IMG/VR virus record: IMGVR_UViG_3300032267_001484
Length of the DNA: 64,000 nucleotides
Direction: 5' to 3' (one strand)
DNA from: a virus
This document shows, piece by piece, positions 9,582 to 51,900 of the stretch. The notes under the pieces were generated by a model. That model saw only the letters and a program-made list of their open reading frames with translations, searched no databases and was not told where the DNA came from. The position numbers and the translations under genes are program-made. How positions within the stretch are numbered: the stretch's first letter is position 1; every line of letters begins with the position of its first letter.

Positions 9582-9818
9582 CTACACACGAGCTCCAGCA
9601 GCTTTACCCGCTGATGTTTTATACCAAGGTTGTCCGTTACCATCTTTTTTAAAGTCTTCCCATTGTTGTTTAGTATACTTAATACCAAATAAATAATACT
9701 CTGACAGGCGCTTATTACCTTGAGGTATAAGTGCGGGACCATCCCAATTATGTATTTTACCATCTAAATAATAAACGATAGTTCCATCTGTTGTTTTCAT
9801 TCTCTTTACTTCTGACAT
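9582..9818 (-). CDS. Hypothetical protein with an HxxDGPA repeat unit
   Basis: GKIHNWDGPALI...EYYLFG motif. Confidence 0.65.
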   Translation of the reverse strand: MSEVKRMKTTDGTIVYYLDGKIHNWDGPALIPQGNKRLSEYYLFGIKYTKQQWEDFKKDGNGQPWYKTSAGKAAGARV

Positions 9819-9824
9819 ATAATT

Positions 9825-11123
9825 TTATTTTAAAAGTGATTCAGCTACATAGATTCCTTGTGCTCCTGATACTGTGATGCCACGAGCTGAAAGTGCATCA
9901 CCTACAAAGTGTACATTTGAATATTCGGTTAATGATAAATCATTGTAGTTAACTAATGGTTCAGGAGATAGATATTTTACCTCAGGCATATAAATTCCCC
10001 AATCATTATCAAATCCAAATACAATTTGCATTTCAGTAATGAAATTTTCAATATATTGAGCATATTTTTCACCTAATGCTTCGAATAAAACATCCATAGT
10101 ATCTACTTGTATAGCTGATACAGTATTACCTTCTGATGTAGATCCTGGTTGGCGTGTTTTGCTAGGTGAGTAGTAGGTACCAGTTCCATTAATTTGGAGT
10201 TTTTTAACTACATCTCTACTCCATTCAAATGGGTTATCAATACCCTTAATTTCCATTAAAATGCCAAAATTGGTCATTCTATTTTCGAATTCTTTACCTT
10301 TCTTGGCATGTCCATTGTAACTGACATCCCCATAAGTTTCTTCAACCGCCACATAAGCTGCGTTGTTATTAGTACAAAAGCTACGAAGGGATACATTATC
10401 AAATTTCTGATATAATTTAAAATCATAACTGATATCTATTAGTTTTTGGAAATATTTTTGTGGTGCCTCAAATCGAACTCCAATTTGTACTGATTTAGGT
10501 TCATTAGGTAATTTATAATCATCTGCTAATTTTTGAGCAAAATCAATACCTGATTTACCTACTGCAAATATTAATTCATCATAATGATAGTCACAATTTT
10601 TATTATCATATACTCCTACTATATAGTTATCTTTAAAATCAATTTTATTAATTTCAGTATTCCATTCAAATTTAACACCTTTATCAACTAAATATTGGTA
10701 CCATGCTTTAGCGATCTCGTGCAAGAAATTAGATCCAATATGCCATACAGGAAACATTCTTAAACCAAAGTATGGTTTAATCCATTTAGGTTCCTTTTTA
10801 GGATCAGACATGAATATTTCTTCTGGTTTAGGGTGGAAACGTCTAAAATTAGAAATAACTTGGTCCATTAATTCCATTGCTTTTTCCTCACCACAATACT
10901 TAGACAACTGACCTCCAATTTCTGTGTGGTAAGTTAATTTACCATCACTCCATCCACCAGCACCCAACATACCTGTCATTACTTCCTCAGGTAGGCGGTT
11001 AATAGGGTCGTTACCTTTATCAATAATGGTAATGTATTCACCAGGATAACCATTATCTACTAATTTAGTAGCGGCATTAATACCAGCTACACCAGCACCT
11101 ACAATAACAATTTTTTTACTCAT
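9825..11123 (-). CDS. FAD-dependent oxidoreductase
   Basis: Rossmann VGAGVAG, GAGGWSDGKL, SLRSFCTN, VHFVGD...RGI. Confidence 0.85.
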   Translation of the reverse strand: MSKKIVIVGAGVAGINAATKLVDNGYPGEYITIIDKGNDPINRLPEEVMTGMLGAGGWSDGKLTYHTEIGGQLSKYCGEEKAMELMDQVISNFRRFHPKPEEIFMSDPKKEPKWIKPYFGLRMFPVWHIGSNFLHEIAKAWYQYLVDKGVKFEWNTEINKIDFKDNYIVGVYDNKNCDYHYDELIFAVGKSGIDFAQKLADDYKLPNEPKSVQIGVRFEAPQKYFQKLIDISYDFKLYQKFDNVSLRSFCTNNNAAYVAVEETYGDVSYNGHAKKGKEFENRMTNFGILMEIKGIDNPFEWSRDVVKKLQINGTGTYYSPSKTRQPGSTSEGNTVSAIQVDTMDVLFEALGEKYAQYIENFITEMQIVFGFDNDWGIYMPEVKYLSPEPLVNYNDLSLTEYSNVHFVGDALSARGITVSGAQGIYVAESLLK

Positions 11124-33200: not shown

Positions 33201-33981
33201 ATAAAGTATTATAATTTTGGTAAGAAGTAGCAATATTATTCCTATTAGGAATTTCTATATCAAAATTAGGACCCCTTAATTGAGGACCAGGAAGAGGAAT
33301 AATTAATTTATCTAAATTAATATCAAAAATATATGGATTAACTTTTTCTTTTACAATCCATAAGGTTGATTTTTCTGGGATAGAAATGGAAAGTGGTTGG
33401 TATAATTTAAGAAATATTTCATACCCTGATTCAATCTTGTTTAGAGCAACATTTACTACTATTGCTTGTTGGTTATCTCCAAAATTAGCTAAATAATCAA
33501 CAAAATAAGAAGATCCACTGTATTCATTAATAATAGATAATACAGAATCTTCAATTTGTTGATTAGTTAAAATTGTAGATCCTACTCTTAATTCTGTTCT
33601 ATCTGATGAAATTTCTTTTAGAAATAATTCAGCATTTGGATTTGATATTTTATTTCCAAAAAAATTATATTGAACTTTAAATTCACCTGATGAATATCCT
33701 AGACTTTGTAAATCTTTAACAGGATCTATTTCAATTATTGGAAGAGAACCACTAGTAGGATCAAGATATGAGTTAGGAGCTAATTTAAAATCTTTATAAT
33801 TATAATTTAAATCTAAAAGATTACCTGCAATATCGTATACAAAGTATTCAATATAATCATTAGAAACACCAAAATCTTCCTTAATTAGTTGGGAAGGAAG
33901 TATATTAAGGTCCTCTTCAGTATAACGAGGTACTTGTTGGGTATCTAAAATTTCACCTACTATTTTTATATTATCTGCCAT
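30235..33981 (-). CDS. Large baseplate/tail protein
   Basis: 1248 aa; LPLLLKTKGT..GL motif resembling baseplate wedge proteins; context. Confidence 0.65.
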   Translation of the reverse strand: MADNIKIVGEILDTQQVPRYTEEDLNILPSQLIKEDFGVSNDYIEYFVYDIAGNLLDLNYNYKDFKLAPNSYLDPTSGSLPIIEIDPVKDLQSLGYSSGEFKVQYNFFGNKISNPNAELFLKEISSDRTELRVGSTILTNQQIEDSVLSIINEYSGSSYFVDYLANFGDNQQAIVVNVALNKIESGYEIFLKLYQPLSISIPEKSTLWIVKEKVNPYIFDINLDKLIIPLPGPQLRGPNFDIEIPNRNNIATSYQNYNTLLNSFQSVSSSYRQLLSLITSQSIDINTDYSNFTNFVFFSSAEQRVLNFYNKIKQIEDLNNSISTYTALTSSYPNLKYDLNLATASLNDTITNFDGFEYYLYFESGSVTTSTEYGITPYPKSTSTLPYTLFSTGSSSASLWLAYSTASANNYDEYNQNNLLYTIPNFIKDDENNAPYITFVNMVGHYFDNIWIYLQAVTDINLANNNLEKGVSKDLVYTVLQSLGTKLYNRYGDSSNDLFLVGKNSGSANFDNNFTPTGSYLNNIPRKDLLAETYKRIYHNLPLLLKTKGTTYGLQTLISTFGITSSILNVKEYGGGLKSDTLQEYNDDKVRIVSNNIVTGNTLSPYTSLQQQPTSSNLFRTNDLHYVDISFSPETQIDTYASASIASSDPTWNIDNYIGDPGYLYSSSYASLDNERKIYYNFNSQYLDYAGFIRLIQYFDSSLFKMIKDFIPARANLSTGVTINSPVLERNKVSYARPTYTSKISVLDLGLNGPTASTSYTSLYTYLTGSKVAYYNGEISGSVINYYSSWTSRNFNPYLLPTSSIDVDFFNHSNFNILLNNVSSSILSVTRKLLQPIYSIVSGTLGLAGYSSSYYAELQDSNLSLESYRLSRHDGVKISSLLYNNYTSASLTYGGDISFGKTAVINKNVRKIGLFTDIAESSFLPGRNRIALKYLVDEYGSLTELNQRNKYWEEIQRTFIAGDYLNVSQFDNQKSSNQKTTDGNKLIFESGYTYYPILYFGKCSTDPKIYFENLLGGGSYLSTAKNGVTPLTISGSSPLGYPLSASYIPNIFNTVIEGSQYFAAGTLTSFPSYSAQETGDHRVQASFDLTVDISGSNQSTTWSLQLYKNGVLLSENEQTFTTSGGGGGGGGNVNISTTVGYTGAFFGHIVRVGSSTNGSTVDITANGSTEVVNYLTTTLPDDGSSISVGFNIDKISPSSNVGDVTSVSLIVNSVQVDSYNRNIGQSLSGTLTGNINRYDTVKIEIIEG

Positions 33982-41732: not shown

Positions 41733-42533
41733 TTAAATCTTTATATACCCATGTTGATAATAATCGTTATATAGCTGGATGTATAATGCTTTAAGTTTTT
41801 TAATTATTTTGGTAATTTGAGGAGTAGATACATCTGTTATTTCACGTATATAAATGTATAATGCCTTTTTATTAAATATCTCCAGCGTTTCACGTTTGCG
41901 AAATAATTCAACTATAGCGTCTGCTGTTTGGGCATCTTGTTTTTTAGGGAACAATTTAAATATATTAGTATCAATATATTTGACATATTGATCCATAAAG
42001 TTATTTTCATTAAATAGATTTTCTAAACTCCTATCATTTTCATAAAGTTGCATCTGATCATCATCAGATTCATCTACGTCAGCTCGTTCTTGAAGTTTTT
42101 TATAGTTATTTTCGTTATATACGATTAAATAACGTTTAGCAATAGTACCAAAGTAAGAAAAGGCCTTACCTTTCTCCGGTTTGTAAAGGTGAAGCTTTTC
42201 AAGTAAAAATGTAATAACCTCGTGCTTGAGTTCTTCTATCGTATCAGTATCTGTATAGTAGAATTTAAACGTATGAATAATATTTTCGGCTAATTTATAG
42301 AAACCATATTCAATACGTTCATTATAAATGCGATTGCGTTCATCTTGATCTATGCAAGCAAGATATTCCACAATAGCGTCTTCAGTATCTTGAGTAAAGT
42401 AAATACGAGGTTCTTTTGGTTTGCGCTTACGTGGTTTACCTCGTTTAGTCAAAGCTAACTTATCATCTTCAAAGATGTCGGCTCCATAGTTTTCAAAGTA
42501 TGATGACATATATGATTCTCTTTTTAATCCCAA
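41733..42533 (-). CDS. Phage late-transcription sigma factor, T4 gp55-like
   Basis: KLAENII, YKPEKGKAFSYFGTIAKRYLI resembling sigma region 2 of gp55; probable start at MSSYF. Confidence 0.72.
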   Translation of the reverse strand: MGLKRESYMSSYFENYGADIFEDDKLALTKRGKPRKRKPKEPRIYFTQDTEDAIVEYLACIDQDERNRIYNERIEYGFYKLAENIIHTFKFYYTDTDTIEELKHEVITFLLEKLHLYKPEKGKAFSYFGTIAKRYLIVYNENNYKKLQERADVDESDDDQMQLYENDRSLENLFNENNFMDQYVKYIDTNIFKLFPKKQDAQTADAIVELFRKRETLEIFNKKALYIYIREITDVSTPQITKIIKKLKALYIQLYNDYYQHGYIKI

Positions 42534-45932: not shown

Positions 45933-45969
45933 GTGTTTTGATTTTTAATTGTGAGATGAAAGTAGGCGA

Positions 45970-46140
45970 TCAATTCTGATCGCCCACTTCCGCTTCATTA
46001 TTTATTTTTACTATTTCATCCCAAATTCTATCACTCAATCTATCCAACTCCTCATTACTCATAAACTTCACTCCCTCATCCATCCTTACCCTACCAACAC
46101 AATAATATAAATCATTTAATTCCTTAATACTTAAATTCAT
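45970..46140 (-). CDS. Small acidic protein; C-free coding sequence except the last codons
   Basis: MNLSIKELND...; promoter at about 46155-46178. Confidence 0.7.
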   Translation of the reverse strand: MNLSIKELNDLYYCVGRVRMDEGVKFMSNEELDRLSDRIWDEIVKINNEAEVGDQN

Positions 46141-46188
46141 AATCTTAATTTTTATAAATATACACAATTAATTATAACAAAACAAATA

Positions 46189-46380
46189 TTAAACATATAA
46201 TATTCCCCACTTTATTATTCTTCCTCCCTCTAATTCAACTTCTCCACTATCACCACAAGTCTCATACTCACCAAAATCTAAATCTTTATCCTCACTCAAA
46301 AACATTCCAACTCCATCATCATTAAACTCAATAAATATACCTTCAAAATCTAATACTTCCTTACCATCTAATATTCTCAT
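46189..46380 (-). CDS. Small acidic protein; one C in the coding strand
   Basis: ORF track; own promoter. Confidence 0.7.
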   Translation of the reverse strand: MRILDGKEVLDFEGIFIEFNDDGVGMFLSEDKDLDFGEYETCGDSGEVELEGGRIIKWGILYV

Positions 46381-46441
46381 ATAATTTAATTTATATAAAT
46401 ATACATAATTAATTCTAACAATTAAAATTTATTTTAAATTT

Positions 46442-46591
46442 CTACCTCACTATTACTTCACAATCCTCATAAATTTTAATCATCCCCTCCTCTAAACTTA
46501 TTTCTCCTCCATACCATTCACTCACAAATTTCTCTAAATTATCTACTTCATAATAATCTCCATAACAATCAATAACAATAAATTTACTCAT
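46442..46591 (-). CDS. Small acidic protein (49 aa); C-free
   Basis: Manual translation MSKFIVIDCYGDYYEVDNLEKFVSEWYGGEISLEEGMIKIYEDCEVIVR; own promoter. Confidence 0.7.
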   Translation of the reverse strand: MSKFIVIDCYGDYYEVDNLEKFVSEWYGGEISLEEGMIKIYEDCEVIVR

Positions 46592-46634
46592 AATTTTTAA
46601 TTTGGATGAATATACATAATTAATTTTAACTAAA

Positions 46635-46817
46635 CTAATTATTTATTATATAATTATATATTTCATCTACTTCTTTACCACTTAACATCCACAATTTTTC
46701 ATCTAATCTACTTCTTTTCATTTTAAATTCTTCACCATCAACTTCAACTACTCTTTCAACTTCATTCAACACATTTTCATCATCACTAATAATCACTTTC
46801 ATTTTTACTTTAATCAT
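46635..46817 (-). CDS. Small protein; C-free
   Basis: ORF track; own promoter. Confidence 0.7.
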   Translation of the reverse strand: MIKVKMKVIISDDENVLNEVERVVEVDGEEFKMKRSRLDEKLWMLSGKEVDEIYNYIINN

Positions 46818-46876
46818 AATTTATAATTTTTAATTAATTAAATATACATGTTTAATTCTGACTAATCAAATTTAAC

Positions 46877-47173
46877 TTATAAATTAAATAAAATCATATA
46901 ACATTCTTTATCTTTAATCTTTATTTTCTTATATACTTCATCTTCTTTTATTCTACTTTTATCTTCAACAATACTATATCCTAATTCAACACCACCATCT
47001 TCACCAACTCCATAATAACCTCCAAAACCATCACTTTCAAACTTATAAATACTATTAATCTCATCTCTTAATTCATCTTCTTCATCTTCTTCTTCATCAA
47101 CAAATCTTTTTATTAAAATATTCTTAATTTCACTAACATTTTCTTTCAAAAAACTTTTAAACATTTTATTCAT
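46877..47173 (-). CDS. Acidic protein; C-free
   Basis: ORF track; VDEEEDEEDELRDE tract; own promoter. Confidence 0.72.
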   Translation of the reverse strand: MNKMFKSFLKENVSEIKNILIKRFVDEEEDEEDELRDEINSIYKFESDGFGGYYGVGEDGGVELGYSIVEDKSRIKEDEVYKKIKIKDKECYMILFNL

Positions 47174-47292
47174 ATCTTTTAATTTAAATAAATATACACA
47201 ATTAATTATAACAATAAAAATTTATTTTAAATTATTTTATATTATTTTTTAAATTTTAAAGTGTGGAGGAGGAGGAAGGAGGGGGTCCCAGA

Positions 47293-47322
47293 TAAAAGAG
47301 CCCCGGGTAGAAACCCAGGGCG
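47293..47322 (-). terminator. Intrinsic terminator upstream of the C-free block
   Basis: GCCCTGGGT-TTCT-ACCCGGGGC followed by TCTTTT. Confidence 0.7.
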
Positions 47323-47347
47323 TAACCATTAAAAATTAAAAGTATGA

Positions 47348-48088: not shown

Positions 48089-48373
48089 TCAGGCTTCAGC
48101 AGCTACTTCGGTAGCCACTTTCTCTACCTTCGGGCGACCTCTCTTGATAGACTCACCAGCTGCAATCTTAGCTGCTTGCGCTGCAAGCTTAGCTTGACGA
48201 GCACTGGTTTCTACTGCTGGACGACCCCTTTTAACTTCACCACCTGCTGCTACACGAGCTGCTCTGGCTGCAAGGCGCATCTGGCGAGCTGAATTCTCTA
48301 CTACTGGACGGCCTTTAGACTTTACTACTTCTACTGTCTCAACTGTCTCAACTGAATTGTTTTGTTTTTTCAT
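48089..48373 (-). CDS. Basic DNA-binding protein with three AT-hook-like motifs
   Basis: KGRP, KRGRP, KRGRP separated by SARQ..LAA helical repeats; likely start MKKQNN. Confidence 0.7.
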   Translation of the reverse strand: MKKQNNSVETVETVEVVKSKGRPVVENSARQMRLAARAARVAAGGEVKRGRPAVETSARQAKLAAQAAKIAAGESIKRGRPKVEKVATEVAAEA

Positions 48374-48653
48374 AACCTGTTTTTTATTATTTGTGTGATG
48401 TGAATGTACGACTTTATTTTGCCCGGACTCCGCCTGTTTTTGATTAGAAAAAATTTTATTTGTGTTCATGCGTTTTAATTTTATAGCGTAAATATACTAT
48501 AAAAAACCCGGACTAACAAAAAAACTATGGTGTTGTTGGGGCAAGTTAGACGCGTACATTCACGTTGTCACTTGCGAGAGCGGTTAAGACGGGCTGGAAT
48601 GTATTCCTGGAGCTGAATCAGAGGTAGGTTCCTCCACCCCCCCCCCCCGGTAT

Positions 48654-48948: not shown

Positions 48949-49581
48949 TTACTTTGCTCGTTTCGGCCTACCTCGCTTACCACCCGATCGTTTGGTTTGA
49001 GCCGCCTTAGCTGCCTCACGGGCTGCCTTCTGATCCTCACTCAACGCCGGACGCCCCCTTCGTCCACCAGTGCTGGCTGGTTTAACAACCACCACTTTGT
49101 TTGGGTTAGCCGGACGCCCCCGCCTACCACCGGAACGAACCTTCGATTCCGCTTTGGCTGTGTCTCTGAGAGCCTTCTCAGCAGGATCAAGCGCTGGGCG
49201 TCCGCGTCTACCAGTTGTTGGTTTATTCTCCTTACCTATCTTCTTCATATTACGCTCACGCTTCTTCGCTTGCTTCTCCGCTCTACGAGCCATCTTATCC
49301 AACATCTTCTTGTGATGGAGTACCTGGGGGTGGATAATAACCTGATCCAGATCATACGAACGAATACCTCCATTTATGTCGACAACCTCGTACCCACCGT
49401 TGGGAAATGTTCGTTTATCACCTGGGGCGTATGCTGCCTTCAACTCAAAATATAACTTCTTGTCGTAAAAAAATGGTGCTGGGAGCACACGCATACCCTT
49501 CTCCGTCGGTATAAAAATCTCCTCCACCTCGTCGTATACGAGGTATTTACCATATTGCCAATCTTTTTCTATTACTTTCAT
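48949..49581 (-). CDS. Protein with an N-terminal domain and four AT-hook-like (RGRP) repeats
   Basis: GRRGRPAL, GRRGRPAN, GRRGRPAL, GKRGRPK. Confidence 0.75.
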   Translation of the reverse strand: MKVIEKDWQYGKYLVYDEVEEIFIPTEKGMRVLPAPFFYDKKLYFELKAAYAPGDKRTFPNGGYEVVDINGGIRSYDLDQVIIHPQVLHHKKMLDKMARRAEKQAKKRERNMKKIGKENKPTTGRRGRPALDPAEKALRDTAKAESKVRSGGRRGRPANPNKVVVVKPASTGGRRGRPALSEDQKAAREAAKAAQTKRSGGKRGRPKRAK

Positions 49582-51468: not shown

Positions 51469-51900
51469 TCAAATACCATCACTTGCTGTGTTGTGTATAA
51501 ACATAGTATAAAGATTTATATCGCGCTCCAAATTACCCGCATCAAAACATTCCCAATAATCACCATCAAACACGTATATATAATCTACACTATCATCCTT
51601 AAGCAAATCAGCAAACTGAGTCGTTGTAACACTAGTATTAGGTTCATTCCTATCACGTCCATAAGCTAAACACCAATTTTGGTTGTGAGTAGACCTATCA
51701 TAAAAATCCTGCTTCTCACCAATTTCAGCCCCTAATATACTCAATTCACCCAATTTCATCAACGCATTTACCTTATCCATATCAGTATAGTGGTCAATAA
51801 GAATTTTCCCGTTGTGACTAGGATATCCATCAAAATGACAATAAATGTAATCAACTGTTCCGTCTGTGTTTCTAACGCCGATGTGTGATCTTGTAGCCAT
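51469..51900 (-). CDS. Phage hypothetical protein (MxTRS...YCHxDGYP type)
   Basis: MATRSHIG...IYCHFDGYP, AYGRDR, DYIYVF. Confidence 0.7.
   Translation of the reverse strand: MATRSHIGVRNTDGTVDYIYCHFDGYPSHNGKILIDHYTDMDKVNALMKLGELSILGAEIGEKQDFYDRSTHNQNWCLAYGRDRNEPNTSVTTTQFADLLKDDSVDYIYVFDGDYWECFDAGNLERDINLYTMFIHNTASDGI

Follow-up and report, generated by a model that had tools for sequence, protein, structure and literature searches.

Five small early genes of a phage related to Immutovirus are written almost without cytosine (C) on the coding strand, and their template strand is free of guanine (G), the base that is modified in related phages. This template face of the pattern had been missed by an earlier, sequence-only reading of the same DNA. 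The cassette is real, it is under selection, and it is explained by no known system. We tentatively favor the explanation that a G-free template may keep putative counter-defense genes open to transcription during an attack of a host enzyme on modified G.

Base composition of the block and its five genes

In the window, i.e., the whole 64,000-nt stretch of DNA that was analyzed, the + strand between 45993 and 47260 contains 526 T, 463 A, 273 C and 6 G (base count, 1268 nt). As the sequence-only reading had stated, the six G are found at 46259, 46604, 46605, 46608, 46850 and 46860 only, compared with 179 expected from a background G content of 14.1% (binomial log10 p = -72.9). The longest G-free runs on this strand measure 400, 344, 266 and 241 nt in the block, and the maximum in the rest of the 64-kb window is 78 nt. 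The same cassette was independently assembled in JGI 3300034198 (up to gene 3) and in Logan ERR2848482 (entire block), with 99.97% identity to the window. Therefore, an assembly or conversion artifact, which had been raised as a possible refutation, is ruled out by two independent assemblies; base composition and dozens of independent samples likewise reject assembly error and bisulfite-like conversion. A reading of the block as a replication origin finds no support in the cumulative GC skew, which climbs steadily.

The block and its genes are the following:

45993..47260, minus strand: C-free coding strand and G-free template, 6 C in 1268 nt; reproduced in loci L145 and L146
46877..47173, minus strand: ORF1, 98 aa, pI 4.6, 0 C in 297 nt; alpha/beta model without convincing fold match
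46635..46817, minus strand: ORF2, 60 aa, pI 4.7, 0 C in 183 nt; C-free ortholog in L131
46442..46591, minus strand: ORF3, 49 aa, pI 4.05, 0 C in 150 nt; family of five, 4/5 C-free
46189..46380, minus strand: ORF4, 63 aa, pI 4.05, 1 C in 192 nt (an ACT Thr codon)
45970..46140, minus strand: ORF5, 56 aa, pI 4.4, 3 C in 171 nt, all beyond 45993

All five ORFs are intact at these coordinates and have the near-zero coding C (0, 0, 0, 1 and 3) reported earlier. The codon choice described for Ser, Arg and Leu (AGT, AGR and TTR) is found in all five, and 17 of 17 serine codons are AGT. The Thr codon of ORF4 holds the sole coding C inside the block and is invariant in three full-length homologs, while the three C in the last codons of ORF5 are due to a closing hairpin at 45958-45991. 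The earlier reading had asked whether homologs elsewhere also lack Ala, Pro, Thr, His and Gln, and ORF1 homologs at 72-98% identity do so across the aligned length, with the exception of one frameshifted tail. ORF5 is the most widespread cassette member and occurs both in C-free blocks and in an ordinary context.

The five products have 49-98 aa and pI values of 4.05-4.73, and they share small size and strong net negative charge with acidic DNA-mimic inhibitors. Among C-free products in general, 93% have a pI below 5, compared with 56% for other early genes, and this acidity follows in part from the codons available. The structure model of ORF1 is alpha/beta with a pLDDT of 83, the best of five models, the others scoring 65-68. 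A fold search with this model gave a best Z of 5.1 to an unrelated kinase lobe and no match with E < 0.001 in BFVD. Searches of PHROGs, PADLOC, PDB sequences, ESM Atlas, BFVD and PDB folds returned no usable match for the products (fold searches with ORF1 only), and no likeness to known inhibitors was found among sequence families or in the ORF1 fold. This absence of matches is no proof of a new fold. The C-free gene products may have an anti-defense function.

Promoters, borders and flanking elements

Five copies of a promoter-like motif are found in the block, which agrees with the earlier suggestion that each gene has its own promoter. These copies, predicted from motif conservation, and the elements at the borders are as follows:

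47329..47347, minus strand: conserved 19-nt element, one true copy per genome in close relatives, absent from immuto
47300..47321, minus strand: intrinsic-terminator-like hairpin, insulating the block from upstream genes
47261..47285, minus strand: tract rich in C and lacking G on the coding strand, adjoining the block on its upstream side; comparable tracts in L018 and L025
47189..47214, minus strand: promoter-like box of ORF1, GTTA-N12-TATATTTA
46839..46862, minus strand: promoter-like box of ORF2, two C retained upstream of the -7 box
46604..46630, minus strand: promoter-like box of ORF3, three C retained within and just past the -7 box
46396..46419, minus strand: promoter-like box of ORF4
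46155..46178, minus strand: promoter-like box of ORF5
45958..45991, minus strand: closing hairpin, 15 bp, PeSL (promoter-early stem-loop)-like, -24.6 kcal/mol, z -7.3, overlapping the end of ORF5 and the next promoter

Across the family, a predicted promoter-like motif, GTCA-N12-TAnnTTYA, precedes 483 early genes. Ordinary early genes carry this form, while promoters inside C-free blocks mostly have GTTA and TATATTTA. The coding strand of the block has five non-coding C, all of them within the promoters of ORF2 and ORF3. Upstream of the -7 box, C makes up 7.5% in first-in-block promoters and 1.2% in inner promoters, compared with 0.04-0.15% in coding sequence. The depletion extends to the -7 box and the next five bases, a stretch that is probably untranscribed. 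Since C is retained in promoters and the block is bounded by a hairpin and a terminator, the unit of C loss is the transcribed stretch.

The borders are abrupt, as had been noted, with the hairpin at 45958-45991 downstream and the C-rich tract and terminator upstream. Related hairpins end the block in L001, L007, L008, L115-L118, L125 and L126. No hairpins were found between the five genes, only at the two borders, because stem-loops cannot form without C. The tract at 47261-47285 consists of GGA repeats on the + strand, making it the compositional opposite of the adjoining block, and it could form a G-quadruplex.

The 19-nt element is complementary to the early-gene leader and start codon. 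It has about 32 true copies, 19 of which are followed within 1.8 kb by a C-free run of at least 120 nt. Together with the hairpin, it marks the slot behind which the C-free units sit, and most units of the close relatives have it ahead of them. It is the sense RNA of the element that pairs with the leader and start codon, and a terminator comes next; the element may serve as an antisense regulator, a decoy or an anchor for recombination. A purely positional gradient starting from it is unlikely, as ordinary or C-rich genes can intervene before the block.

Distribution in the phage family

Genes for a T4-like portal and terminase, for thymidylate synthase, glycosyltransferases and DUF932 are present in the window. 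A conserved anchor gene at 41733-42533 lies 3.5 kb downstream of the block and has 48% identity to immuto26A_153, and the region of DUF932 and small genes has the same order as in Flavobacterium phage immuto_2-6A. Homology and synteny place the phage among the relatives of Immutovirus (a Flavobacterium myovirus), and its host is probably a freshwater Bacteroidota.

About 120 loci were collected with the anchor gene and ORF5 as queries, and many of them have C-free blocks at the same locus. Blocks can be long, with about 1.9 kb nearly C-free in L008/L104 and 1269 nt with 0 C in L122, or consist of single-gene islands (L018, L025, L119, L123). Of 483 distinct early genes, 49 have less than 0.5% C, while the bulk have 8-20%. 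The C-free genes make up 25 families in changing combinations at one locus, with no universal member. Hence non-homologous genes at the syntenic locus are C-free as well, a comparison the sequence-only reading had proposed. Among eight near-complete genomes, a C-free unit is found in five (immuto, G004, G006, G012, and G014 with a 28-codon unit) and was not found in G003, G015 and G016 (in G015 and G016 within the 40 kb early region examined). G005, which is 77% complete, gave no C-free gene. In the cultured phage immuto_2-6A, the syntenic gene immuto26A_128 is C-poor, with 5 C in 357 nt (log10 p -19.8). Searched as DNA against cultured phages, the block itself gave no match. A scan of IMG/VR for C-free acidic coding was dominated by poly-Asp/Glu tracts, and the 80 loci examined held short C-free runs and no whole C-free gene.

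Some smaller observations accompany this distribution. The smallest units are a mildly charged 72-aa gene with a single C in L575 (G012, 33285-33503 of the joined 40 kb) and a 137-nt run in G014, where the 28-codon C-free ORF lies between the 19-nt element and the closing hairpin. C-poor genes (3-9%) flank the C-free core, mostly upstream (L007 3525-4211, L008 4043-4810, L065 4500-5655, L030 5734-7894), and may be recent arrivals or leavers. In G003, C is almost absent from the 3' half of one otherwise ordinary early gene (L027 5948-6192 = G003 9778-10022). This gene has a homolog at 51469-51900 of the window, all members of its family are poor in C past codon 40, and it may be a mosaic with a C-free allele. 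The window also encodes two basic early proteins (48089-48469 and 48949-49581, minus strand) whose recurrent Gly-Arg-Pro motifs look like AT-hooks; both are candidate binders of AT-rich DNA. In Microcystis phage Mel-JY01 (L196), a non-coding region at 123.4-124.7 kb switches from G-rich/C-poor to C-rich/G-poor over two inverted G/C boxes and looks origin- or packaging-like.

Selection on the C-free state

Among 20 disjoint pairs of C-free homologs, 326 conserved NNY codons show 0 T/C differences, compared with about 48 predicted from ordinary pairs, while 239 NNR codons in the same pairs show 30 A/G differences. The pairs were selected as C-free, and the test thus measures persistence. The C-free genes have a dN/dS of about 0.28. 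When ordinary early genes are converted from C to T in silico, stop codons reach 4.9%, T makes up 46% of codon position 2 and Ser amounts to 2.3%; the real C-free genes have open frames, with T at 33% in that position and Ser, always AGT, at 6.2%. At codon positions 1-2, their composition matches removal of C followed by renormalization. These results show that selection, and not plain C-to-T conversion, keeps the units C-free from the -7 box to the stop codon. Conservation, dN/dS and the small acidic products support the core of the earlier proposal, a cassette that selection holds C-free, probably in answer to a host defense.

The loss is independent of context, with synonymous C at 0.079 after T and 0.080 after purines. 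On the coding strand, synonymous G shows no such reduction (GAG share 0.27 vs 0.30, AAG 0.28 vs 0.28), and ordinary early genes that share these promoters are not short of synonymous C compared with core genes (0.21-0.41 vs about 0.20). The responsible agent must therefore act on one strand and on every base regardless of its neighbors, tolerate coding-strand G and spare ordinary early genes. As the loss is context-free, strand-specific and gene-specific, simple motif explanations are out, and template G or message C remain. In ordinary early genes, we also observed that G-ending synonymous codons are about 2.5 times as frequent as in core genes (0.3 vs 0.12) and that C-ending codons fall from 5' to 3' (0.41 to 0.21).

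Guanine modification and the proposed mechanism

DpdA3 is encoded in G003-G006, G012-G016 and immuto, including all eight near-complete relatives (8/8), and the relatives' proteins are 29-36% identical to the DNA guanine transglycosylase DpdA3 of immuto. FolE, QueE and QueC accompany DpdA3 wherever checked, and QueD is present in G004-G006 and G014, with no QueD match in G003. The dpdA3/folE/queD/queE/queC cluster was not found within the 64-kb window. QueF and DpdN are absent from the relatives checked, and therefore their base is not fdPreQ1. In QueC (L092 9891-10739; homologs in G003, G005, G006 and the chemically characterized immuto), a four-cysteine zinc motif is missing from the last 95 residues. 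In immuto_2-6A, CP220 and phiST, DpdA3 gives complete replacement of G by a 7-deazaguanine, as shown by mass spectrometry for immuto (10.1101/2023.04.13.536721). Dag glycosylases excise 7-deazaguanines, cut the backbone and have homologs in Bacteroidota (10.1101/2025.10.29.685425).

The mechanism we propose would work as follows. The five small early promoter-gene units stand in a row and are shuffled between phages like PeSL cassettes, and the strand that the host RNA polymerase reads has no guanine. Incoming DNA would carry the 7-deazaguanine made via the DpdA3 pathway that eight relatives encode, and in some hosts an enzyme, either a Dag-type glycosylase/lyase or another G-directed enzyme, may attack the modified guanines base by base. 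Such lesions would block transcription only if located on the template strand, and double-strand breaks would require G on both strands; C-free units would thus stay readable and repairable while ordinary genes fail. The acidic products may then blunt the attack or other early defenses. Ugi similarly protects the uracil-DNA phages PBS1/PBS2 against a base-specific host enzyme. The cost, i.e., the loss of Ala, Pro, Thr, His and Gln, would be borne only by the genes expressed during the attack.

The observations we count in favor of a template free of modified G are the context-free, strand-specific and all-or-none loss of C, the ongoing selection, DpdA3, the syntenic immuto26A_128 and the Dag glycosylases, together with the acidic products and a low density of pairs of G that lie on opposite strands no more than 10 nt apart (3.9 per kb in the block, compared with 132 per kb for the window). 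Several points stand against it. C in the mRNA and G in the template are the same letters, and the sequence tests fit an RNA-level cause equally well. DpdA3 is near-universal in the family, and therefore its link with C-free genes is not an independent correlation or test. The fully modified phages CP220, phiST and NCTC12673 gave no C-free genes, nor did the relatives G003, G005, G015 and G016. Ten other modified-base phages (T4, RB69, S-B43, SPO1, nt-1, CAjan, phiSM, phiW-14, Xp12 and YuA) show no mirror pattern, i.e., no gene without the matching base, and no TC-free genes were found in CAjan or 9g. Among 13 other cultured phages with modified bases, a general rule that templates avoid the modified base was not seen. 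Heavy nicking would be expected to harm the G-rich coding strand too, but coding-strand G is not reduced, and the products resemble no known inhibitor.

Alternative explanations

As the main rival, the cause may instead lie in the RNA, although we consider this rather unlikely: the host would remove CTP, flood the cell with a CTP analog (ddhCTP) or damage C in RNA, so that messages requiring only ATP, GTP and UTP are completed and yield counter-defense proteins. This explains the strand specificity, the context independence and the all-or-none pattern equally well, and it fits the C retained upstream of the -7 box of first-in-block promoters (7.5% vs 0.15% in coding sequence). However, the -7 box and the five bases after it, probably untranscribed, are poor in C as well, although stronger promoters could account for that. 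Viperins are mainly known to stop phage polymerases. A search of five complete relatives for a multisubunit phage RNA polymerase gave no hit, which weakens the viperin version of this idea; lack of CTP or a CTP analog, as the earlier reading had proposed, stays a rival. Viperins do make ddhCTP chain terminators (10.1101/2023.09.13.557418), but the literature searched held no CTP-depleting defense, and the Chp phosphatase spares CTP (PMC12715507). Without any host attack, 7-substituted guanines in the template might slow or stall the host RNA polymerase, making the C-free units a fast lane or bootstrap set, which we regard as improbable. Bulky 7-substituted 7-deazaguanines block bacterial RNA polymerases in vitro and plain 7-deazaguanine is tolerated, in line with phiST having that base and no cassette, but the block occurs at initiation and no elongation pauses were seen (PMC4838386). 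Additionally, synonymous C is not depleted in ordinary early genes that have promoters of this type, no gene is common to all cassettes (25 families), and three of the eight near-complete DpdA3 relatives have none.

The remaining explanations are still weaker. Rho loads on C-rich unstructured RNA, and weakly folded messages might escape it by dropping C; Rho targets RNA with C over G and shapes coding-strand composition in some bacteria (PMC13323073), and C-free messages do fold weakly (-0.075 vs -0.160 kcal/mol/nt). However, Rho reads several spaced CC/UC steps and would leave AC and GC, which are lost too; U, another Rho feature (PMC13323073), stays at 36%; and a graded bias would suffice, leaving unpredicted the removal of the last C at the cost of five amino acids. 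Escape from Rho is thus very unlikely. We give equally little credence to mutation, in which a deaminase or long single-stranded exposure turns C of the non-template strand into T faster than selection retains it. In close homolog pairs, T stands opposite C at codon positions 1-2 in 23/33 cases compared with 36% in ordinary pairs, the units sit behind a conserved single-copy element, and G003 has its half-stripped gene. Yet this T share agrees with the mutation spectrum normally seen at synonymous sites (79%), single C-free genes lie among ordinary genes with the same promoter type, and the invariant Thr codon of ORF4 is retained. The stops, T share and Ser content predicted by in silico conversion disagree with those observed, and the history of deamination once offered as an option is not supported. 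Avoidance of motifs, i.e., G/C restriction palindromes or C-containing toxin RNase sites, as in first-injected T5/T7 regions, appears least probable of all. The block has one G/C 4-mer palindrome where 25.6 are expected, and the suggested lack of palindromes is therefore true as a by-product; it fails as a cause, since sites can be avoided without removing a base. The suggested MazF-type sites are opposed by the equal loss of C in all contexts. Moreover, 7-deazaguanine DNA already resists G/C-site enzymes, and there is no sign that the block enters the cell first.

Implications

What is new in this work is the survey across the family, the tests for selection and the presence of the trait in a cultured phage that has been chemically characterized. 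No description of natural genes written without one base was found in the open literature, subscription journals being largely outside the search. Whatever the mechanism, some activity in the infected cell targets each G of the template or each C of the message, and such a signature has so far been tied neither to an attack on modified G that spares DNA with G on one strand nor to a CTP-directed defense. It offers a composition-only route to candidate anti-defense genes and also to natural folded proteins made from 15 amino acids. If the preferred reading is right, which we hold possible at somewhat less than even confidence, entire phage genes can evolve with a three-letter alphabet, which leaves the strand that is read without the base attacked by a host defense, here the phage's own modified guanine. 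Counter-defense would then be written in base composition, the missing letter pointing to an unknown host defense chemistry and marking its inhibitors. The cultured pair of immuto_2-6A (gene 128) and Flavobacterium sp. LMO8 makes the question testable.

Comparison with known systems

Ugi (PBS1/PBS2), Ocr and Arn are small acidic DNA-mimic proteins. The C-free products are likewise small and very acidic, without a sequence match to these proteins and, for ORF1, without a fold match; the genes of Ugi, Ocr and Arn do not, to our knowledge, exclude a base. In immuto_2-6A the gene order around the block is alike and one C-poor gene is found there, and relatives of the window share its pathway and DpdA3. 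The parts available to us of the study on immuto_2-6A, CP220 and phiST mention no C-free genes (10.1101/2023.04.13.536721).

The PeSL cassettes of the T4-type phages RB49 and phi1 are likewise small early ORFs with repeated host-type promoters, shuffled in a hyperplastic region. As far as their description was accessible, the stem-loop is often joined to the promoter and no missing base is mentioned, while the C-free block has hairpins only at its borders and does exclude a base (PMC2839356). The first-transferred DNA of T5-like phages is also early DNA composed to escape host activity, but in the accessible part of that account motifs are avoided and not a base (PMC10644984). The purine bias that avoids Rho also depletes the coding strand of C relative to G, but it is genome-wide and graded, and it lowers U (PMC13323073). 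The C loss described here is absolute, gene-specific, bimodal between genes and context-free, and it spares U. A footprint of hypermutation by deamination would show C-to-T changes at all codon positions and nonsense damage, which the C-free genes do not have. Synthetic G-less and C-less cassettes, which can be transcribed with three nucleotides, are man-made, non-coding templates.
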